A stretch of DNA of 64,000 bases from Thermoanaerobaculia bacterium (GTDB taxonomy: Bacteria > Acidobacteriota > Thermoanaerobaculia > Gp7-AA8): contig JBBRTB010000005.1 in the NCBI GenBank assembly GCA_038244815.1, positions 16,387 to 80,386 on the forward strand, in the 5' to 3' direction. A model generated the notes under the pieces. It searched no databases and was not told where the DNA came from. It saw only the letters and a list, made by a program, of their open reading frames with translations. The position numbers and the translations under genes were made by a program. Every line of letters begins with the position of its first letter. The stretch's first letter is position 1. Positions 31,326 to 45,785 of this stretch are shown here, piece after piece.

Positions 31326-33123
31326 CGGAATCGCCGCTCTCTCGTCGCGCCAACGGCTCGTGTTCTGGAGCGCGGCGCTCGTGTGCGCGGTGTCGCGGCT
31401 ACTGGCGATGGCCCGTTCCATGTGGGACTGGGACGAGGCGCTCTTCTGCCTGGGCATGCAGCGCTATGACGTGACCATGCACCATCCGCATCCGCCCGGC
31501 TTCCCGGTGTACATCGCCATGGGAAAGCTGCTCCGGCTGGTGACGCCGAGCGATTTCCGAGCGCTCCAGGCCGTGAACCTGATCGCCGGCGCGCTGGCGT
31601 TTCCGGCGGTGTTCCTGCTGGCTCGTGCCCTGCGTCTGCGCTTCGAGACTTCGGTCATCGCCGGAGTGCTCTTCGTGTTCTTTCCGAACGTCTGGTTCTT
31701 CGGTGGCACCGCGTTCAGCGACGTGCCCTCGATCGTGCTCGTGGTCTTTGCGGTGGTGTTTCTGCTACGCGGCCGCGACTCGACGCGGGACTATCTGCTG
31801 GGAACGCTCCTGCTGGCCCTGGCCATCGGTATGCGGCCGCAGAATCTGCTGGTGGGACTCTTTCCCGGCATCTACGCGACGATGCGCCGGTCGTGGCGCG
31901 ACATCGCCATCGCCTTTCTGATCGGCGTCGCCGTCGTCGGAATCGCGTACGGCGGAGCGATCTACGCCACCGGCAACCTCCACGACTACGTGAACACCAT
32001 CCGTGCGCACAGCGACTACATCACGCGGATCGATTCGTTCCGCTCGCCCGACCGCCCGGCGCTGTGGCGGCTCTTCGACCGGTTCTTCATCAAGCAGTAC
32101 GAGCAGCCGTTCCTGGGTATGCTGACTTCCCTGTTCGTGGCGATCTCGATCGGCGGCGCAGTGGTCAGTGTGGCCGCGACAAGTGTGGCCCCGACAAGTG
32201 TGGCCGCCGGCTTCAGCCGGCGACGCGGCCTCCTCTGGAACTTTCTGATCTTCGCGCCCTTCGCGATCTCGGCGTGGCTGATGCTCGACCGTTTCAGCGT
32301 CAACCGTTTCTCGATCGGCTATGCGCCGATGTTCGCGATCTTCGCGGCCGACGGGATCGCGCGCGCGTCGCGCGGTTCGCGGACCGCGGAGAGTGCGATC
32401 GCGGCGCTGCTCGTCGTGGGATTCATCGCCTGGACCGCTCCAGCCCTCACACCGGTCCGTCGCGACGTGGCGCCGTCGGTTCGCGCCGTCGAGGCGGCGA
32501 TACGGACGGTGAATCCGGCAGCGGCTCATCTCTACGTCGGATATTCGATGACGCCGTTCATCGAGTATCGGGCGCCGTCCTTTTTGATCACGCGTGTCAT
32601 GGACGACCGCGCCATTCCGCTCACGCCGGCGGCCCGCGGCGTTCTGCTGGCGGAGGTGTCGGAGCCGCAGCCGGGCGGTACGCTGTTCACGCGCGATCGC
32701 GATCGCCTCTGGGACATCGCCCGCCGGCACTACTTCGAAGTGGTGTTGCGGCCGATGACGAGCGTGGCGCGGTTCGGCGCCGGATGGTACGGCGCTGAGG
32801 AGCAGGGGATGGACGAGTGGAGGTGGATGTCGCGATCGAGCGTCACCACGCTTCCGCCCCGCACGGGAGAGACGGTCCTGCGGCTCAACTTCGCCATCCC
32901 CGGCGATCTCGTGGCGAAGCAGCCGGAGATCACCGTGACGCTCAACGGGCACACGCTGGAGCGGTTCCGCGCCACGAGTCCCGACGTCTCACGCGACTAC
33001 CACGTCACTGCGCTCGACGGACCGAACGTGATGACGCTCGCTTCTGATCAGACGACGAAGGAAGCGGGCAGCGGACGCGAGCTCGGATTGCGCGTGCGAT
33101 TCATCTCGTGGGGGCCGGGATAG
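31318..33123 (+). CDS. GT-C fold membrane glycosyltransferase (DUF2723/TMEM260- or PMT/ArnT-like)
   Basis: GTG at 31318 lies just before the fadJ stop. The product is polytopic with a first-loop motif MWDWDEALF...HHPHPPGFPVYIAMGKL resembling the DxxE...HPPG(Y/F)P signature. The start is uncertain, and M at ~31408 is also possible. Confidence 0.65.
   Translation: MGSGIAALSSRQRLVFWSAALVCAVSRLLAMARSMWDWDEALFCLGMQRYDVTMHHPHPPGFPVYIAMGKLLRLVTPSDFRALQAVNLIAGALAFPAVFLLARALRLRFETSVIAGVLFVFFPNVWFFGGTAFSDVPSIVLVVFAVVFLLRGRDSTRDYLLGTLLLALAIGMRPQNLLVGLFPGIYATMRRSWRDIAIAFLIGVAVVGIAYGGAIYATGNLHDYVNTIRAHSDYITRIDSFRSPDRPALWRLFDRFFIKQYEQPFLGMLTSLFVAISIGGAVVSVAATSVAPTSVAAGFSRRRGLLWNFLIFAPFAISAWLMLDRFSVNRFSIGYAPMFAIFAADGIARASRGSRTAESAIAALLVVGFIAWTAPALTPVRRDVAPSVRAVEAAIRTVNPAAAHLYVGYSMTPFIEYRAPSFLITRVMDDRAIPLTPAARGVLLAEVSEPQPGGTLFTRDRDRLWDIARRHYFEVVLRPMTSVARFGAGWYGAEEQGMDEWRWMSRSSVTTLPPRTGETVLRLNFAIPGDLVAKQPEITVTLNGHTLERFRATSPDVSRDYHVTALDGPNVMTLASDQTTKEAGSGRELGLRVRFISWGPG
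32167..32221 (+). repeat. In-frame 15-bp triplication (AGTGTGGCCSCGACA x3) followed by a REP-like hairpin GCCGGCTTCAGCCGGC inside the glycosyltransferase gene
   Basis: Units at 32167-32181, 32182-32196 and 32197-32211 encode SVAAT SVAPT SVAAG. The hairpin at 32206-32221 is the same core as at 1577-1596. Confidence 0.8.
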
Positions 33124-34291
33124 GCGAGTTTTCGGCCGCGGCTTTGCGGTGCGGAAAGTCGATCACGCGCGCGGCCAGCAGGCGTTTGAATGCCCTCAGC
33201 GCTTCCAGCTCCGGCATGGGCATGATGCGCAGGATGTCGCGGATGGTCAGCCGCCCGTCGACACGCGAGAGCAGGAACCCTTCCGCCGGCTCGATGTTGA
33301 GCCGGGACATGGCATCAGGGCCGATCGTGACGACCGGTACGTCATCTTTCGTGAAATTGTGTTCGTACACGGAGGCGGCGAATGCGCGGGTCACCTCGAG
33401 GAGCTGCTCGACGATGTCCTTGCGGCCAGGATTGGCGGTGGCCAGTCCCTGCAGCATCTCCATCGCTTCGGTCCAGCGGCCCGCCTGAGCCGCCGCTCGG
33501 GCGTCGTCCATCTTGCGCGCCAGCCGCTTTTCGCGATCGACGTGCGCGGTGATGTCGGTCGGCTGAATGAGCCGGTAGGAAAGCAGCTCGGAGATGGCCC
33601 GGAAGATCTTGAAGCGGCTGAAGGGCAGCTTCTCCGTGAGGTTGGCCACGTTGACGCTGCCGTCGATCCGGGCGAGCACGTGCCGGGCCACCAGCGCGTC
33701 TTCCCACTTCTCCTGGGTGGGAAACGATTCGTCTTTCGACTCGAAACAACTGTTTGGGTGGATATAGGCGTTCATGCGGCTCCAGACGTCCGCGCGCCGC
33801 AGCCCTTCCCACACCACGTGAATGGGATCGATGTTGATGACCAGCGATGACGTGGACGCGGTCTTGCTCGGCTCGAAGGTGAAAGAGCCTTCCGTCCACA
33901 GGAACATCTCGCAGACGTCTTCGATGGTCTTCTCCGTCAGTGTGGAGAGAGCCTGCTCTCGGGTGATCTTGTTCTCCCGGACCAGCACGGCCGCGGCGGC
34001 GGCTCCCGTTTCGGCCTGCACGCGAAACGCCGCCTCGATGTCCTCTTCGCTGGCGAAGCCGTGATAGAGCAGGTAATTCCGCCAGCGTTCCCGTTTGTCG
34101 TTCGTCGACGAGAACACGATGCGGCCGTCGCTAAGGACGACGCGGATCTCTTTGCCACGCTCATCGGTGAACTGAAACAGCCCGGTTCTCTGCGCGGTGC
34201 GGCCCCATTGGATGAGGTCCGCCACGGACATGGTCGAGAATTTTCCGGCGACGCTCACGAAATGGCTTCGTAGTGTAACGCAGGGCCGCAA
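33101..34291 (-). CDS. DUF4388 domain-containing protein
   Basis: N-terminus GKFSTMSVADLIQWGRTAQRTGLFQF...IRVVLSDGRIVFSS and WTEGSFTFEP parallel the protein at 1606-2844. The C-terminal FLLSRVDGRLTIRDILRIMPMPELEALRAFKRLLAARVI motif is present. There is no FHA domain. Confidence 0.75.
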   Translation of the reverse strand: MRPCVTLRSHFVSVAGKFSTMSVADLIQWGRTAQRTGLFQFTDERGKEIRVVLSDGRIVFSSTNDKRERWRNYLLYHGFASEEDIEAAFRVQAETGAAAAAVLVRENKITREQALSTLTEKTIEDVCEMFLWTEGSFTFEPSKTASTSSLVINIDPIHVVWEGLRRADVWSRMNAYIHPNSCFESKDESFPTQEKWEDALVARHVLARIDGSVNVANLTEKLPFSRFKIFRAISELLSYRLIQPTDITAHVDREKRLARKMDDARAAAQAGRWTEAMEMLQGLATANPGRKDIVEQLLEVTRAFAASVYEHNFTKDDVPVVTIGPDAMSRLNIEPAEGFLLSRVDGRLTIRDILRIMPMPELEALRAFKRLLAARVIDFPHRKAAAENSPIPAPTR

Positions 34292-39342: not shown

Positions 39343-39348
39343 GTTGCC

Positions 39349-39449
39349 GGGTCGCTGGGTTGCGTCGCTGGGTCGCTGGGTTACCGGTTACCGGCTACCG
39401 GCTACCGGTTACCAGATACCCGCTAACCGCTAACCGCTAACCGCTAACC
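39349..39449. repeat. Three consecutive short-unit tandem arrays: (GGGTCGCT)-type, (TTACCGG/CTACCGG)x5, (GCTAACC)x4
   Basis: The arrays fill almost the entire gap between the convergent gdh (stop 39342) and kinase (stop 39455) genes. Confidence 0.9.
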
Positions 39450-39454
39450 AACCG

Positions 39455-41314
39455 CTACTGCAATGCATCGAGCAGGACGCGCGCGAATGCTTCCGCCGGC
39501 GTGTCGCCGAAGCGGTACTCCTCGGCGGGCATCTCGTAGCGGAAGATCACTCGTCCGTTCTTCGAGATGGTCGCCTCTGCCGAACGGCGCTTCTTTCCGC
39601 GCCCGAGATGGTCGATGACGCCGTGGAAGTCGATGGCGGTGCCGGCGTCGCCGGCGATGGTCAGTGCAGAGACCGACTTCAGCCGGTCGGTGAGCTCCTT
39701 CAGCATCTCGGCGTTGTTCGCACGCACGCTGATCTTCTTCACTCCCTGCAGATGCTGTTTGAGATCCGACAGCAGCCGGTCGTTCTGATCCGAGTCGCCG
39801 CCTTCGACGAACGCCTTCACCGCCAGCGTCGGAGAGGCGGCGGCCGGTTCGGGTTCTTCCGGCTTCGGCTGTTCCGTCAAGGCCGGTTTCCTGTGAACCG
39901 GTGGCGCAGCGGTTTGCGTCTGCGCGATGGCCTGAGTGGTGGTCTGGGTCGTTGCCGGCGGTTGTGACGCAGCCGGTACGGCGCTCGATGTCGCCGGCGC
40001 GGTCGAGACCACATCGACGTTGGCGTGCGCTTTTTCGGGTGCAGGCTGGTGAGCCCGCGCCACGCTCTTCGGCGGATTCGAAGGGACCGATTGCGGCGTG
40101 CGCAGAATCACGACGGCGATGGCGATCGCGGCAACGATCACGATGCCGACGACGATGACGATTGCGGCGAGGCTGCTGGATTCTGTTCGCCCGATCGGAA
40201 TCTGTTCAGCCGGCATGGCGCCCGGCAGCGGCGTTCGAACCGTTGGGCCGGCATCGTCCACGCCCGTGCGGACCGTGGATCGCTGCAGGGTATCGAGCGA
40301 CTGCGGCACCGGCGTCATGTTCAGCGTCGGCTGCGAGGAAAGATCGGGGAGGGTCTGTTCCACCTGTTCCAGCGCCCGGGCGAACTCTTTCGCGCTCGAG
40401 TAGCGTTTGTTGCGGTCGCGCTCCAGCCCTCTGGCCAGAACCGCCTGCAGCTGGGTGCCGCCGGGCAGATCGGGGGGGAGATCCAGCGGTTTGAACTGCG
40501 TATCGCGTGAATGCATCATCACGTATTCGTGCGGGGAAGTGGCTTCGAACGGAGGCCGGCCGGTGAGCATCTCGTAGAGGACCACGGCCATCGAGTAGAG
40601 ATCGGCGCGTCCGTCGATGCGCTCGCCTTCGGCCAGGAATCCCAGGTGCTCCGGTGATGCGTAGCGCAGCTTGCCGACGAAGACGCCCGCGCGCGTGGCT
40701 GTGTCGGTCGAGTCCTCGACCTTGGCCACGCCCATGTCGATGATCTTCACGCGCTCGTCGCCGACCGGCTCGCGCGTGATCATGATGTTCTCCGGGCTGA
40801 TGTCGCGGTGGACGATGCCGGCGCGGTGAATTGCTTCCAGCCCGTGCAGGGCCTGAATGGTGAGCTGCACCGCGTAACGCGGCGGCAGCGTTCCGCGCGT
40901 GCGAAGGCGCTGGGCCAGGTTCTCGCCGTCGATGAACTCCCAGACCATGTAGTGCGACCCGTCGGGCAGCGCTGAGAAGTCATGCAGGGTGGCCACGTTC
41001 GGATGCTGGACCTTGGTGGCGGCGCGGGCCTCGCGAAGAAACCGCTCGTGCGCGTCCTGGCTCTCCGAGATCTGCGGGAGGATCACCTTGATCACTCTCG
41101 TGGCGCCGAGGAAGGTGTGCGTGACCTTGTAGACCTCGCCCATGCCACCGGTGCCGAGCCGCTCCACGATCTGGTACTTGCCGTCGACAGGCTGATCGGA
41201 GTACTGGCGAAGGAACTCGGTGACCGGCTCGCCGCAATGCGGGCAGGCCTTGTAAGTCCGATCGATCTCGGCCTTACAGCGGATGCAATGGAATGCTGCC
41301 ATTGGACCGCACAT
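39455..41314 (-). CDS. Membrane Ser/Thr protein kinase with an N-terminal zinc ribbon
   Basis: CIRC-x12-CPHC at the N-terminus. Kinase motifs: GTGGMGEVYK, VIKV, HRDISPENIM, DMGVAK, SPE. One TM segment (AAIVIVVGIVIVAAIAIAVVIL). About 220 aa lie outside the membrane, including a Pro/Thr/Gln-rich linker. Confidence 0.9.
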   Translation of the reverse strand: MCGPMAAFHCIRCKAEIDRTYKACPHCGEPVTEFLRQYSDQPVDGKYQIVERLGTGGMGEVYKVTHTFLGATRVIKVILPQISESQDAHERFLREARAATKVQHPNVATLHDFSALPDGSHYMVWEFIDGENLAQRLRTRGTLPPRYAVQLTIQALHGLEAIHRAGIVHRDISPENIMITREPVGDERVKIIDMGVAKVEDSTDTATRAGVFVGKLRYASPEHLGFLAEGERIDGRADLYSMAVVLYEMLTGRPPFEATSPHEYVMMHSRDTQFKPLDLPPDLPGGTQLQAVLARGLERDRNKRYSSAKEFARALEQVEQTLPDLSSQPTLNMTPVPQSLDTLQRSTVRTGVDDAGPTVRTPLPGAMPAEQIPIGRTESSSLAAIVIVVGIVIVAAIAIAVVILRTPQSVPSNPPKSVARAHQPAPEKAHANVDVVSTAPATSSAVPAASQPPATTQTTTQAIAQTQTAAPPVHRKPALTEQPKPEEPEPAAASPTLAVKAFVEGGDSDQNDRLLSDLKQHLQGVKKISVRANNAEMLKELTDRLKSVSALTIAGDAGTAIDFHGVIDHLGRGKKRRSAEATISKNGRVIFRYEMPAEEYRFGDTPAEAFARVLLDALQ

Positions 41315-42146
41315 GATACAGCGCGCTCTTTGGTGGTGCGGCGGCGATGAATCGTGTCACGGTGTCGTAATAGCGCGCCCCTTCCGTGTTCGCGATCTCG
41401 CAATGTCCCGAGGTCTCGCTGACGAGCATTTCCTTCTTCACGCGCAATTGCTCGTAGAGTGAGAGACCGAGCCTGAACGGGATGACCTGATCGGGTTTCC
41501 CGTGCATGACCAGCACCGGCACGCCGGCCTCGTTGAGCCAGCGCACCGTGGTGAGAGCGCGCGGCGCCGTCCAACCCACCGGCACCGGTGCGTATATGGC
41601 GTTACCGAGCTCGCGCAGCGACGGGAAGGAGTTCTCGATGATCACGCAGCGGGCCCCTCGTGTCCTGGCGACGTAAGCCGCATACGGGCCGCCCAGCGAT
41701 TCGCCGTAAAGCGAAAGATCGGAGGAGAGCCGCTGGGCATAGTCGTAAGCGGCCAGCGCATCGATGAACAACGCGTTTTCCTCGGGCGCTCCCTCACTCT
41801 TCCCGTATCCACGCCAGTCGAAGAGCAGGAGCGACACGCCGCGCGCGGCGAGATTCGATGCCATCGGGCCGCGTTCGCCGATGTTGCCGCCGTTGCCGTG
41901 ATAGTAAACGAGGAGCGGTGCATTCGCGGTGCGGGCCCGGAACAGCCAGGCGTCGAGCCGCACGCCGTCGGGCGTGGTGATCCACTGCTCGTCCGGCTGG
42001 ATCGGAAACCTCGATGTGTCCCAGTCGCCTTGCGGATAGCGCAACGGGAAAAACATCGAAGACCGCCGAACGGACCGTGCGAAGAAATAGAGCGCCAGCG
42101 CTGCGACCACCACACCGGACGTGGCGATCGCCAGAAGACGGATCAC
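41274..42146 (-). CDS. Alpha/beta hydrolase (S33/BAAT-like) with an N-terminal membrane anchor
   Basis: GTG start overlaps the upstream stop (GTGA). Contains HGNGGN, nucleophile elbow GESLGG and HGKPDQVIP. Confidence 0.85.
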   Translation of the reverse strand: MIRLLAIATSGVVVAALALYFFARSVRRSSMFFPLRYPQGDWDTSRFPIQPDEQWITTPDGVRLDAWLFRARTANAPLLVYYHGNGGNIGERGPMASNLAARGVSLLLFDWRGYGKSEGAPEENALFIDALAAYDYAQRLSSDLSLYGESLGGPYAAYVARTRGARCVIIENSFPSLRELGNAIYAPVPVGWTAPRALTTVRWLNEAGVPVLVMHGKPDQVIPFRLGLSLYEQLRVKKEMLVSETSGHCEIANTEGARYYDTVTRFIAAAPPKSALYHVRSNGSIPLHPL

Positions 42147-43177
42147 GCCGACAATTTTTCCCAGTCCGTCTCGGGGGCGTCAAGCGCGAGCGCCAGACCA
42201 CCGTCCGATCCGACGAACACCGGATCCTCCATGTACTTGACCCGTCCGCCGCCGACCTGTTTGAGCGCGGTCTCGATTGCCTGGGGCAGATTGCGAATCA
42301 GTCCCCCGCCGCCGGAGAGGATGATGTTGTTGCGCACTTTCTCCTGAAATTCCGGCTCGACGCGCGACAGCAGATCGAGCATGGTCTCGATGGCCGGCCC
42401 GAGCAGGGTGTCGCAGGCCGCCTTGATCTCGGTAGTGATGTCGAGCTCCGTCGGGACGCCCTGCACCGGCGCCGTGACGATGGCCTTTTGCGATGCTTCA
42501 CCAACGAAGCTGTACTTCTCCTTCCACTCCCGGACCATGAAGATGGTGACATTGGCCTGCGGATACCGCTCCTCGACGAGGTTGAGCAGGTGCGCGTCGA
42601 TCGAGTCGCCGGCGATGGTCAGCGTGCGCTGATCCTCTTCCGTCGGATAGCGCCCCTTCATCACGCAGAAGTCCGTCGTGCCGGCGCCGATGTCGATGAT
42701 CATGGTGTTGAGCAGCGCATCCAGCCCGTACGCGACGGCAAAGGGCTCTGACACGATCATCAAGCTATCCACGATACCTTTCATGGCGTTGCGCAGGTAC
42801 TGTTTGTTCGTCCGCAACGCCGCGGCCGGTACGCCGATCACGGCCCGTACGTTCGATGACCGTACCTTGCCGGTTGCACTGACGCCGACCAGGCCGAGCA
42901 AGTGACGGAGAAGCTCGCGCACGGCCTCGACGTCCTTCTCCGACCCTTCCTTGAGCAAACCGCGCTCGAGCGGACGGTGCAGATCGAGCATGGTTCGATT
43001 GGCCACGGCGTCGTGTCCGATGAGCACCTGGCGCTTGAGGACTTTCTTCGCCACCATGTCCACCGGCCATCCCACGAAACTATCGACGACGAACCGCTCG
43101 CCGTTGGACGCGGAGATCGCACTCCGGGAAGTACCGAGGTCGATTCCCACGTGGAGCAGTTCGGATGATCCGGTCAT
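42143..43177 (-). CDS. MamK-family actin-like protein
   Basis: 344 aa. The segments [61 protein letters not shown] and [14 protein letters not shown] closely parallel Magnetospirillum MamK as I remember it ([58 protein letters not shown]). They match less well to MreB (DLGTANT; DIGGGTTE). Confidence 0.8.
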   Translation of the reverse strand: [344 protein letters not shown]

Positions 43178-43180
43178 CGT

Positions 43181-44188
43181 TCAGGTTCCTTTCTTCTGCG
43201 GCGTCTCGGCCGCCCCCGCGTACGCATGAATGCCCAGGTATAACGCCTCGGCGATCTTCTGCCGGTAGTCGGCGCGGGCAAGCATTGCCGCTTCTCCCCG
43301 ATTCGAAATGCAACCGACCTCCGCCAGGATGGCCGGCATGTCCGTGGCCACGAGCACGACGAACGGCGCCCGCTTCACGCCCCAGTTCTCCAGCCCCGGA
43401 TCATCGTTGCGCAACTGGCCGTACAAATGCTGCTGCACGCGCGCGGCGAGCTGCCGCGACTCGTCGCGGCGGGCATCGGCGTACACGCCGTCGAGCAGTT
43501 TGCGCAGATCGGCCATCGAGTAACCGGACATGCTGTTCTCGTCCGAGGCCAGCTTCGTCAGAGACGGATCGTTCGTCGGTCCGAGGTAATAGGTCTCCAC
43601 GCCGTGCGAGGCGGTGTGCTTGATGAGTGAGTTCACGTGGATGGAGACGAAGATGTCGCTGTGCGACGAGTTCGCCAGCCTGGCCCGTTCGCGCAGCTTG
43701 AGCGTGCGGTCGTCCGGACGGGTGATCACCACCTCGAAGCCATTGTCGGTGAGCATGCGGCGCAGGCGGCGGCCGATATCGAGCGTGATGTCCTTTTCGT
43801 TGAGGCCCAGCGCCGACGCGCCCGGATCGGTTCCGCCGTGACCGGCATCGAGCACGACCCGACGGACGGCCAGCGGAAACGCGGCCGCGGCCACGCGCTG
43901 GAGGCTGCGCGGATCCTCCGGCGTTGTCTGAGCGGGTGGAACGATGGCGGCACGCGTCACCCCAAGTGGAATCGGCGCCGAGCCGTTCGCCACGAAGTAG
44001 GTCGAGCCGGCCAGGCTGAACAACGCCAGTAGAACCGGCGAGCGCCGCAGCCACAGGCCCATCGTCCGCTGCTGTTTCCTGAGCGGCCGCGGCAGCAACC
44101 CTCGCATCGTGTCGACGTTGTCGGCCACCGCTTCATGGAGAAGCCGGCGCCGCACTCGGTCGATTCTTTCCGCTCTCATTCCGCTCAC
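43181..44188 (-). CDS. N-acetylmuramoyl-L-alanine amidase (Amidase_3, AmiC-like)
   Basis: VVLDAGHGGTDPGA...NEKDITLDIGRRL...RARLANSSHSDIFVSIHVNS...PAILAEVGCISN is the Amidase_3 pattern. The product has an N-terminal TM/signal segment. Confidence 0.9.
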   Translation of the reverse strand: MSGMRAERIDRVRRRLLHEAVADNVDTMRGLLPRPLRKQQRTMGLWLRRSPVLLALFSLAGSTYFVANGSAPIPLGVTRAAIVPPAQTTPEDPRSLQRVAAAAFPLAVRRVVLDAGHGGTDPGASALGLNEKDITLDIGRRLRRMLTDNGFEVVITRPDDRTLKLRERARLANSSHSDIFVSIHVNSLIKHTASHGVETYYLGPTNDPSLTKLASDENSMSGYSMADLRKLLDGVYADARRDESRQLAARVQQHLYGQLRNDDPGLENWGVKRAPFVVLVATDMPAILAEVGCISNRGEAAMLARADYRQKIAEALYLGIHAYAGAAETPQKKGT

Positions 44189-44236
44189 CCGATCGACAGA
44201 CGATCGCGACTAGTCTAACGGGTTGGCGGAAAAGCC

Positions 44237-44398
44237 GGGTCGCTGGGTCGCTGGGACGCTGGGTCCGCTGGGTCGCTAGGTCCGCTGGGTCGCTAGGTCG
44301 CCGGGTCGCTGGGACGCTCGACCCAGCCACCCCCGGCAACCTGGTAACCCGGCAACCCAGCGACCCAGTCACCCAGCGACCCAGTCACCCAGCGACCC
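44237..44398. repeat. Largest short-unit array hairpin: about 11 units of GGGTCGCT-type followed by about 8 reverse-complement units (CCCAGCGA/CCCAGTCA)
   Basis: The left arm (44237-44320) carries GGG every 7-9 nt and the right arm (44319-44398) is its approximate reverse complement. It lies between the cytochrome gene stop (44406) and the amidase start (44188). Confidence 0.9.
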
Positions 44399-44405
44399 GA
44401 AATGA

Positions 44406-45515
44406 CTACTCCGGTTGCACGAACACCTTCTGATCCACCTTCGCGTTCGGCACGATCTCCGTGTATTGCAAGCTGCGCGAGGCACCGCGATCGACTGATT
44501 CGTAATCGACACGGAAGGGAAGTTTGAAGCCGCCGACGTCGCGGTAGTCGTCGAAATCGGTCTGCTGCGGAATCGCACCGACCGGCTCATACGTCAGCGT
44601 TTGACGACGGAGCAGCAGCCCCGTCTCCGGATCGAAGTAGAACCTCTGCCGGCCATTGGTTCCGGCAGGCGTGGTGAGCACCCATACGTCCTTATCGTTG
44701 ATGTGCGCTTTCATCACGCGTCCTTCGGCGGGAATGCCGGCGGGGAACGTGGGGCGCAACGCGTCGAGGACCTCGCGTGTGAATTCGAGCTGCATGGGAG
44801 GCATGGCGTGCGTGCCATGCTCATCGCGGGCCCAGCCGCCATTGGGTGTGACGACGCTGACCATCTCCCCGTCCTGGGTGGTCGCGGTGACGCGCGTGTT
44901 GCCTTTGGAGACGACGACATCGATGGGAGCGGCGGGATGCTCGCTCGCCTGGCGTGTACCTTTGAGCTCGATCGAAGAGATGGCTTTCTGATCGACGTTG
45001 CCGATGGCCCGGGCGTACCGCGAGACCAGCTCGTCGCGCGTGGGCATGACCGGCTTGTGTCCGGCTGCTTCATCCGCTTCGTGCTCTTCGTGTTGATGCA
45101 TCGGCTGGGGAGCGGCCACTGGAAGCATGGGCACACTCATGGGATGCGAGCTGCCGCGATGACAGGTGTTGCAACTGACGGCGGTGTGGCCCTTGAAGAA
45201 GTTCGTATTCGTGTCGATCACCAGCCGGATCATGTTGCGGGCGGTGCGTTTCTCTTCCTTGTCGTCACTCGCAAAATCGCGGGTGTCGCCCGGGCCGAAC
45301 ACATGACAGAAGTCGCAGCTGACACCGAGAGAGGCGGAGATGAACCGCATGTTGCGAATCAGCTCGGCCGGGGGGAGGTCCTTGAGGACCAGCACGTTCT
45401 TCAGTTCCTTTGACCCACCCTGGGCGGGGCGTTGTTGTTGTGGCGCTGGTTGCGGCTGCGCGGAGAGTATTGCCGCGGAAGCAATGGTCATCAGCGCGAT
45501 CGTGGCTGCCTTCAT
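44406..45515 (-). CDS. Secreted dihaem c-type cytochrome (reaction-centre cytochrome-c-subunit-like domain) with a C-terminal beta-rich domain
   Basis: ATG at 45515 is preceded by AAGGAG. Signal MKAATIALMTIASAAILSAQ. Two CxxCH motifs (CDFCH, CNTCH) lie in the context LKDLPPAELIRNMRFISASLGVSCDFCH...RTARNMIRL. Confidence 0.75.
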   Translation of the reverse strand: MKAATIALMTIASAAILSAQPQPAPQQQRPAQGGSKELKNVLVLKDLPPAELIRNMRFISASLGVSCDFCHVFGPGDTRDFASDDKEEKRTARNMIRLVIDTNTNFFKGHTAVSCNTCHRGSSHPMSVPMLPVAAPQPMHQHEEHEADEAAGHKPVMPTRDELVSRYARAIGNVDQKAISSIELKGTRQASEHPAAPIDVVVSKGNTRVTATTQDGEMVSVVTPNGGWARDEHGTHAMPPMQLEFTREVLDALRPTFPAGIPAEGRVMKAHINDKDVWVLTTPAGTNGRQRFYFDPETGLLLRRQTLTYEPVGAIPQQTDFDDYRDVGGFKLPFRVDYESVDRGASRSLQYTEIVPNAKVDQKVFVQPE

Positions 45516-45785
45516 CGGGGCTCCTTTCGTGAACGCGCATCTTAGCCGTGTCGGCCTGATATCGTGCATCACGGCTCTGCCGTAAGATCGTGGCAGGTGG
45601 CGAGCTGAGGCTGCAGGTTCCGTTCCCCACGATGGGGCCGTGATCGTCTCGGCGCTGGCGGCATGCGTACGCGCAACTGACCGGTCGAGGAATTTTGTGC
45701 GGCTGTTTTACAATTCGGGCCTCGAAGCTCATACGCCCCCGTGACCCACGACTGACGACCCCATCAGAGGAGTACACGAAGAAGA

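Follow-up and report, generated by a model that had tools for sequence, protein, structure and literature searches.

A 64-kb window from the genome of a Thermoanaerobaculia bacterium (contig JBBRTB010000005.1; the window is the whole stretch of DNA that was analysed, and coordinates given below are positions in it) carries four minus-strand open reading frames (ORFs) at 39455-44188, two of which encode a cell-wall amidase and a MamK-family actin-like ATPase. We found that these two genes form a pair that spans at least five phyla of non-magnetic bacteria: an Amidase_3 gene lay directly upstream of the actin gene, on the same strand, in all 82 non-redundant loci for which upstream DNA was available. 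The first gene (43181-44188, minus strand) encodes a predicted bitopic N-acetylmuramoyl-L-alanine amidase of 335 aa when read from GTG 44188 and of 332 aa from ATG 44179, the start used by the database protein P0391. The second (42143-43177, minus strand; 344 aa) encodes an actin of an amidase-linked MamK-like subfamily. We favour, with somewhat better than even confidence, a reading in which a cytoplasmic MamK-type filament binds the N-terminal tail of the amidase and positions or activates the cleavage of peptidoglycan in the periplasm.

The evidence for the pair comes from a comparison of loci by tblastn with the four window proteins. The locus set comprised the best 80 of 409 tblastn-confirmed hits, with one genome per GTDB species, together with metagenome contigs. 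Identity of the actin to the window protein ranged from 90% to 41% over the 82 loci (90% to 48% in the 80 genome loci), the most divergent amidase-linked representative being P0161 (locus L088) at 41%. Relatives at 68% and 49% actin identity retained only the amidase, again ahead of the actin, which was followed by a DNA ligase gene or the end of the contig. Among Acidobacteriota, the pair was present in Thermoanaerobaculia, 'Holophagales' and Candidatus Multivorans. Beyond this phylum, it was found in Nitrospirota (Thermodesulfovibrio, Sulfobium, Nitrospiraceae), Desulfobulbus, Desulfobulbaceae and Gammaproteobacteria, as well as in one Rhodothermales chromosome and in single bins labelled Binatia, Rokubacteria or Deltaproteobacteria. 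Overall, the subfamily includes thousands of proteins from metagenomes and no fewer than 80 genomes at the species level.

The two genes are also closely joined. Their junction overlapped or measured at most 10 nt in 70 of the 82 loci; in the window, the amidase stop codon TGA (43181) and the actin ATG (43177) are separated by 3 nt (ACG) and lie in frame. Pairwise divergence of the actin tracked that of the amidase catalytic domain (r = 0.90 over 78 loci), and the rate of change was about 1.3 times higher in the amidase. Meanwhile, the gene that follows the actin varied by subclade and included LigA, chorismate mutase/prephenate dehydrogenase, cytochrome c peroxidase and sensor kinases. All-against-all clustering of 3145 ORFs of at least 90 aa from 83 loci revealed no third gene common across the loci, returning solely the actin, the amidase and antisense shadow ORFs of both. 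Given the invariable linkage and the lack of a third shared gene, the conserved functional unit is the amidase–actin pair and not the cassette of four genes. A first-pass annotation of this DNA had proposed such a cassette; when conservation was checked across phyla, the pair held whereas the four-gene order was confined to close Thermoanaerobaculia relatives. The junctions and the parallel divergence indicate that the two genes are inherited together, as a module that is, by all appearances, translationally coupled.

Several lines of evidence place the window actin with MamK rather than with MreB. Against sequences of known structure, it scored 262 bits with MamK, 126 with BeeR and 48 with the best MreB, in agreement with the first-pass annotation. 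It is 40% identical to MamK of M. magneticum AMB-1 over 331 aligned residues and 31% identical to BeeR. The NCBIfam models ranked in the same order: MamK (NF040964) gave 374.7 bits, below its cut-off of 400, BeeR (NF053558) gave 217 bits (cut-off 530) and the MreB models gave 50-71 bits (cut-offs 293-515). The AlphaFold2 (AF2) model of the actin (predicted local distance difference test, pLDDT, 75) had the MamK filament 5LJV as its top Foldseek match (E 6e-28, TM-score 0.76-0.80), followed by BeeR and then MreB. The actin core begins at residue 7-8, and the phosphate-1, connect-1, phosphate-2 and adenosine motifs are intact; the ATP motifs DLGTS, SEPF, DIGAGTTD and GGGG are conserved throughout the family. 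Six positions are specific to the amidase-linked clade (S19, G78, V86, L93, I114, where the clade consensus is V, and F170); they were not used as evidence for an interface.

Database labels are a poor guide to this subfamily, with Nitrospirota members named 'MamK family actin-like protein' and Acidobacteriota members 'rod shape-determining protein'. Amidase-linked actins scored 375-425 bits with NF040964, and the range includes the 411 bits of P0160, an actin from a magnetosome cluster. Two of them, P0127 (425) and the L083 actin (405; L083:6968-7996), pass the cut-off, while P0121 (393) fails. The NCBIfam MamK model thus cannot separate the amidase-linked clade from genuine magnetosome MamK. 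Since it scores actins of non-magnetotactic Nitrospirota and Desulfobacterota (405-425) like a genuine MamK (411), 'MamK family' labels and surveys that use mamK as a marker can mislead.

The amidase combines a catalytic domain of the AmiA/B/C type with a conserved N-terminal segment. Pfam recognised a full-length Amidase_3 domain (PF01520; E 7e-50, match 1-173 of 174) and nothing else in the protein, so no AMIN, LysM or SPOR domain, although SH3 was not specifically checked. The catalytic domain (43226-43858, minus strand; aa 111-321), which is predicted to be periplasmic, contains the Zn/catalytic motifs DAGHGG, NEKD, SIHVN and AEVG, all invariant across 87 amidase homologues. The best sequence matches in the PDB were AmiB 3NE8 (Bartonella), AmiA 8C2O (E. 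coli) and AmiC 4BIN. The fold was confirmed by an AF2 model based on the 87 homologues (pLDDT 77), for which Foldseek returned CwlD, AmiA, AmiB, AmiC and LytH as top matches. The NCBIfam equivalog models for AmiA, AmiB, AmiC and CwlD gave 87-123 bits (cut-offs 221-700).

In all complete amidases, a conserved N-terminal motif is followed by a stretch rich in Arg and Lys and by a single hydrophobic helix, after which a linker of variable length (43-124 residues) leads to the Amidase_3 domain. The motif, [KR]xxΦLxx[AV][VY]x[ED]NΦ, occurs in every amidase with a complete N-terminus, with Asn conserved in 100% and K/R in 99%. In the window protein it corresponds to R13-V25 within RVRRRLLHEAVADNVDTM (aa 11-28; 44105-44158, minus strand), the predicted cytoplasmic peptide that we propose as the actin-binding element, and it falls inside a predicted helix of residues 2-25 (AF2 pLDDT 74-86). 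A single transmembrane (TM) segment is predicted at aa 50-70 (43979-44041, minus strand), after the basic stretch. In the AF2 model, a helix extends through 47-62, residues 61-102 are disordered and the catalytic domain (107-323) is well predicted; the linker after the TM segment has low confidence. As the positive-inside rule would put the motif on the cytoplasmic side of the membrane and the enzyme on the periplasmic side, we infer a bitopic, type-II (N-in) protein with a cytoplasmic tail and a periplasmic catalytic domain.

The catalytic domain also retains a putative regulatory insert (aa 209-236, SLTKLASDENS...; 43481-43564, minus strand), which aligns with a helix segment of AmiB that we take to be autoinhibitory. 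The alignment with 3NE8 runs unbroken through this region (LASDENS versus LAESENK), whereas the matches to the insert-less amidases 5EMI and 1JWQ are split in two. Residues E214 and N215 are invariant among the 87 homologues, and the AF2 model places helices at 205-215 and 222-233.

To place the window actin among its relatives, we built a neighbour-joining tree from 151 sequences (40 bootstrap replicates). At E ≤ 1e-30, actin matches amounted to only 192 clusters (50% identity) in 1.8 billion representatives. MamK-like actins formed a superclade (bootstrap 100) with BeeR-like sequences outside. Within it, the amidase-linked actins grouped together (85 sequences including P0161, bootstrap 60); 62 of them made up a subclade from Acidobacteriota (bootstrap 58) and 22 a subclade from several phyla (bootstrap 92). 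MamK of AMB-1 and P0160, which belongs to a verified magnetosome cluster (L104, with LemA/MamQ, CDF/MamB and MamF beside the actin), fell in the other half of the superclade. No amidase accompanied the MamK-like actins outside the amidase-linked group (P0129, P0130, P0132, P0141, P0143 and P0160), some of which had no informative neighbour at all. As an argument that the linkage arose once, the shared gene context outweighs the tree. The position of the clade beside the magnetosome MamKs in a well-supported superclade suggests that the magnetosome actin was perhaps recruited from a cell-wall-associated ancestor. We therefore raise, tentatively and at less than even confidence, a broader possibility: the subfamily may be an unrecognised, phylum-spanning actin cytoskeleton with the amidase as its dedicated cargo, in which the tail-bound filament dictates where the wall is cut and from whose wall-associated ancestor the magnetosome actin may derive. 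If true, this would bear on the origin of MamK.

Other MamK-like actins were observed in quite different surroundings. At L103:1-4507, the actin P0143 lies between cheA/cheW-like, cheC, cheD and cheX genes, a non-magnetosome context. At L089:6001-10606, P0129 is located about 1.4 kb from a bactofilin–parB–parA–gidB group near a putative origin, without an amidase. A further clade (bootstrap 100; P0131-P0154) consists of proteins of 500-1232 aa in which a long N-terminal extension precedes a MamK-like domain at the C-terminus. We considered these as amidase–actin fusions and rejected the idea, as their extensions contain no Pfam domain. At L105:4163-8075, the genes behind one of these long proteins encode a second actin, three Roadblock/LC7 proteins, a PatA_N protein and a Ras/Arf-like GTPase.

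Under the favoured reading, the actin would assemble with ATP into filaments beneath the inner membrane, and the amidase would bind to them through the conserved, basic and amphipathic helix of its cytoplasmic N-terminus. The TM helix and a flexible periplasmic linker of 40-120 residues would then hold the catalytic domain at sites defined by the filament, for example mid-cell or a longitudinal track, where it would cut stem peptides off the glycan strands. Because the regulatory-helix segment of the AmiA/B/C type is retained, clustering or an activator would be needed to switch on the amidase. The process served might be the separation of daughter cells or the maintenance of shape.

A number of points weigh against this reading. 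Binding of the tail to the actin is a proposal from sequence and gene linkage. The TM segment is only weakly hydrophobic in the window lineage (Kyte–Doolittle value 1.36, compared with 2.0-2.6, a strong anchor, in other clades) and is preceded by RR, so a cleavable or Tat-type signal is possible; such a signal would detach the motif from the enzyme. All members found are uncultured metagenome-assembled genomes or metagenome contigs, and no cultured host appeared among the best 120 matches of either actin search. The outer limit of the linkage is sampled through few representatives, since only the best 80 of the 409 hits were taken. Deep support in the neighbour-joining tree is modest, with a bootstrap of 28 for the 84-sequence clade and of 60 once P0161 is included. 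Finally, the only public runs that contain the locus are three sediment DNA metagenomes, and no RNA run does.

The remaining two genes of the block encode an alpha/beta hydrolase (41274-42146, minus strand; 290 aa) and a Hanks-type Ser/Thr kinase (39455-41314, minus strand; 619 aa), both of them lineage-specific neighbours of the pair. The hydrolase has an N-terminal TM segment, matches Hydrolase_4/Abhydrolase_1 in Pfam and carries the nucleophile elbow GESLGG. All four ORFs lie exactly where the first-pass annotation had placed them, on one strand and nearly without gaps: the actin stop and the hydrolase start share a GTGA overlap (42143-42146), and the hydrolase and kinase genes share 41 nt between the hydrolase stop (41274) and the kinase ATG at 41314, a figure that falls to 29 nt with ATG 41302 as the start. 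A promoter and terminator scan inside the block returned nothing above chance, and in the window the hydrolase and kinase may be co-transcribed with the pair. The kinase matches Pkinase (PF00069, E 1e-44) with HRDISPEN and DMG present, and has a TM segment at aa 382-404 followed by a predicted extracytoplasmic C-terminal region of about 130 residues without a family match; no PASTA domain was found. The zinc ribbon ascribed to this kinase is plausible, as an N-terminal CxxC...CxxC is present, although the Pfam DZR match is weak (E 0.003) and not significant. Scores with PADLOC PD-T4-6 (267 bits; single-gene kinase defence candidates), PADLOC mad6 (217.5 bits) and NCBIfam MADS6 (172 bits) look like generic Hanks-kinase similarity.

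The first-pass annotation had combined all four genes into one cytoskeleton-guided, phospho-regulated wall module, in which the kinase controls the actin or the amidase and a protein with an FHA domain reads the signal. Besides their contiguity in the window, the four genes keep their order in a relative at 87% actin identity (four contigs, L001-L004), and the hydrolase and kinase lie nearby in about 10 close relatives (9-10 Thermoanaerobaculia loci with actins about 78% identical or more). Both genes are nevertheless missing from about 70 of the 82 pair loci, and even close relatives often have them displaced: two M16 (insulinase-type) peptidase genes separate hydrolase and kinase in L010, L012, L014 and L015 (e.g., L012:8902-11789), L013 and L064 have inserts of 2.5-3.7 kb behind the actin, and L020 has no kinase within 7 kb. 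We take the hydrolase and the kinase to be genes that a single Thermoanaerobaculia lineage gained next to the pair. Of the physical linkage proposed for the actin, that to the amidase was upheld in every locus and that to the kinase in close relatives only. The kinase itself fits only generic Hanks-kinase models. The FHA protein exists (1606-2844, with DUF4388 and FHA domains), yet its gene is 37 kb from the block and it is tied to the kinase by proximity only. What speaks for phospho-regulation and for the FHA link is therefore gene proximity in a single lineage, and we regard a functional unit of four genes as very unlikely.

Three further explanations concern the pair itself. The assembly state of the actin could be relayed to the amidase through the tail and TM helix, or through clustering, freeing the regulatory helix and turning the enzyme on, much as FtsEX–EnvC controls AmiA and AmiB. 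The AmiB-type segment, the intact ATPase motifs and a tight 1:1 genetic coupling suited to a dedicated regulator are compatible with such inside-out activation, as is the lack of a LytM-type activator gene conserved nearby. We nonetheless think it unlikely, since one TM helix with a disordered linker is a poor conduit for a conformational signal and activator genes could sit elsewhere in the genome. Alternatively, the two proteins may be co-expressed, for example at division, without touching, the actin organising the chromosome, storage granules or another organelle and the tail serving membrane insertion or a different partner. MamK-like subfamilies do occur in magnetosome, chemotaxis, parAB/bactofilin and Ras-like GTPase contexts, which suggests flexible cargo in the family, and the tail–actin contact on which the favoured reading depends is itself only proposed. 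However, linkage in 82 of 82 loci with overlapping codons and no other shared neighbour exceeds usual co-regulation, and a motif with an invariant Asn in all complete actin-linked amidases, the set to which this comparison is limited, calls for a cytoplasmic partner. This makes co-expression without contact distinctly unlikely.

Lastly, the actin might be MreB or a cryptic magnetosome MamK, or the pair a lysis-plus-partition cassette of a phage or plasmid or a defence system, as the public labels, the matches of Amidase_3 to phage endolysin families and a weak match of the actin to a phage partition family could suggest. The MreB scores are far below their cut-offs. No mreC, mreD, PBP2 or RodA gene was found among 20 ORFs around the block, and none is a conserved neighbour in the 82 loci; canonical MreB with mreCD/pbp2 adjacent elsewhere, which the first-pass annotation had named as its own refutation, was looked for in these loci and not found. 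Consistent with its statement that the window holds no magnetosome genes, tblastn with LemA/MamQ, CDF/MamB and MamF of the verified cluster had no match in the window or in any amidase-linked locus. On this result and the metabolic flanks, we reject a magnetosome context. The 20 flanking ORFs encode housekeeping functions such as NAD-glutamate dehydrogenase, S-adenosylhomocysteine hydrolase, a c-type cytochrome, fatty-acid oxidation and a flavoprotein of the succinate dehydrogenase/fumarate reductase type. No member of the clade was detected in 2.9 million viral contigs, where three viral MamK-like genes lacked an amidase, and PADLOC returned nothing for the amidase or hydrolase and a negligible match for the actin. 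We likewise reject a phage, plasmid or defence origin on the viral-contig search, PADLOC and the housekeeping flanks, and the trees of amidase-linked actins follow taxonomy. Together, we consider this group of explanations extremely improbable, and retain the reading in which the filament binds the amidase tail.

The block is bracketed by two repeat-bearing spacers, neither assigned to a strand. The upstream spacer (44189-44405), at the boundary towards the cytochrome c gene, contains a long hairpin of CCCAGCGA/GGGTCGCT 8-mers that spans about 160 nt in 8-nt units (RNA fold -148 kcal/mol, z -10) and is followed by CUUUUCC. The downstream spacer (39343-39454), towards the convergent NAD-glutamate dehydrogenase gene, contains four GGTTAGC tandem units and the CCCAGCGACCC motif (RNA fold -54.8 kcal/mol, z -3.6). 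All 13 matches to CCCAGCGACCC in the 64-kb window lie inside these two spacers, with 2.7 expected by chance. The repeats may be repetitive extragenic palindromic-like elements or terminators. The cytochrome gene just upstream of the block (44406-45572) encodes a 388-aa protein whose N-terminal part is haem-binding and PufC-like (NCBIfam 'c_type_nonphoto', 80.8 bits) and whose C-terminal part bears a weak likeness to LolA-like/DUF6544 domains. Two window proteins have an N-terminal DUF4388 (PatA_N) domain, the one at 1606-2844 with the C-terminal FHA domain and another at 33101-34291 without a second Pfam domain; such a domain also adjoins the Roadblock genes in L105.

We compared the pair with systems in which a filament or a wall amidase is better understood; our search of the open-access literature and bioRxiv turned up no report of a MamK-like actin tied to an amidase. 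MamK filaments are two-stranded, non-staggered and ATP-dependent. MamK (PDB 5LJV, 5LJW, 5JYG) is the closest solved structure and sequence to the window actin and shares its ATPase motifs. It differs in its genetic context, with mamJ, mamY and other mamAB genes as partners instead of an amidase gene and with magnetosome genes that the window locus lacks, and both AMB-1 MamK and P0160 lie outside the amidase-linked clade. BeeR of Verrucomicrobiota (three-stranded; PDB 8R2N) is likewise a MamK-related actin of non-magnetotactic bacteria, but it has a disordered N-terminal extension of 30-50 residues that is missing from the window actin (PMC11929497). According to that paper, no function has been assigned to the relatives of MamK in non-magnetotactic bacteria (PMC11929497), as the first-pass annotation had also noted. 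In a preprint on Thiomargarita, mamK homologues were reported beside flotillin-like genes.

On the amidase side, AmiA, AmiB and AmiC are autoinhibited Amidase_3 enzymes that need localisation and activation, through FtsEX–EnvC for AmiA and AmiB and through NlpD for AmiC. The catalytic domain of the window amidase is of the same type, whereas the protein is predicted to be membrane-anchored and lacks AMIN or a recognised septal-targeting domain; no FtsEX, EnvC or NlpD gene was linked to the pair in the 83 clustered loci. LytH–ActH of S. aureus and CwlD–GerS of C. difficile (PDB 7TJ4 and 7RAG; Foldseek ranks 1 and 12) share the fold and are membrane-anchored, partner-dependent Amidase_3 enzymes. 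Their partners are extracytoplasmic or polytopic membrane proteins, while the partner proposed here is a cytoplasmic cytoskeletal ATPase. They also lack the AmiB-type regulatory insert, as seen from the split alignments. If true, the proposed mechanism would add a route of amidase control besides AMIN-domain targeting and FtsEX–EnvC/NlpD.

The proposed contact between tail and filament has precedents. The bitopic protein RodZ binds the actin-like MreB filament through its N-terminus in the cytoplasm; the logic suggested here is similar, though the actin is not MreB. The nearest parallel is the morphogenetic module of the bactofilin BacA and the M23 endopeptidase LmdC in Hyphomonas neptunium and Rhodospirillum rubrum (PMC10945521). 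Genes for bactofilins and LmdC-type peptidases adjoin in many species, the peptidase is bitopic, and a conserved cytoplasmic stretch at LmdC's N-terminus binds the polymer, which recruits the peptidase (PMC10945521). The amidase–actin pair resembles this module in the adjacency of polymer and hydrolase genes across taxa (82 of 82 loci) and in the predicted design of the hydrolase, which is bitopic with a short conserved cytoplasmic N-terminus, one TM segment and a periplasmic catalytic domain. On the other hand, the polymer here is an ATP-dependent MamK-family actin and BacA a nucleotide-independent bactofilin, the hydrolase is an Amidase_3 enzyme and LmdC an M23 peptidase, and the tail motif, whose binding we infer, is a predicted helix where that of LmdC is a beta-hairpin. 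As an actin-fold ATPase with an Amidase_3 partner, the locus would work like bactofilin–LmdC without being a member of that system. If so, tail-mediated placing of a bitopic wall hydrolase would be a principle shared by bactofilins and actins, and by endopeptidases and amidases. A large MamK-like subfamily outside magnetotactic bacteria thereby gains a concrete partner and a testable hypothesis of its function. Together, the comparison suggests that the pair is a cytoskeleton–wall-hydrolase module of known logic built from different parts, and an undescribed way of steering wall cleavage from inside the cell.

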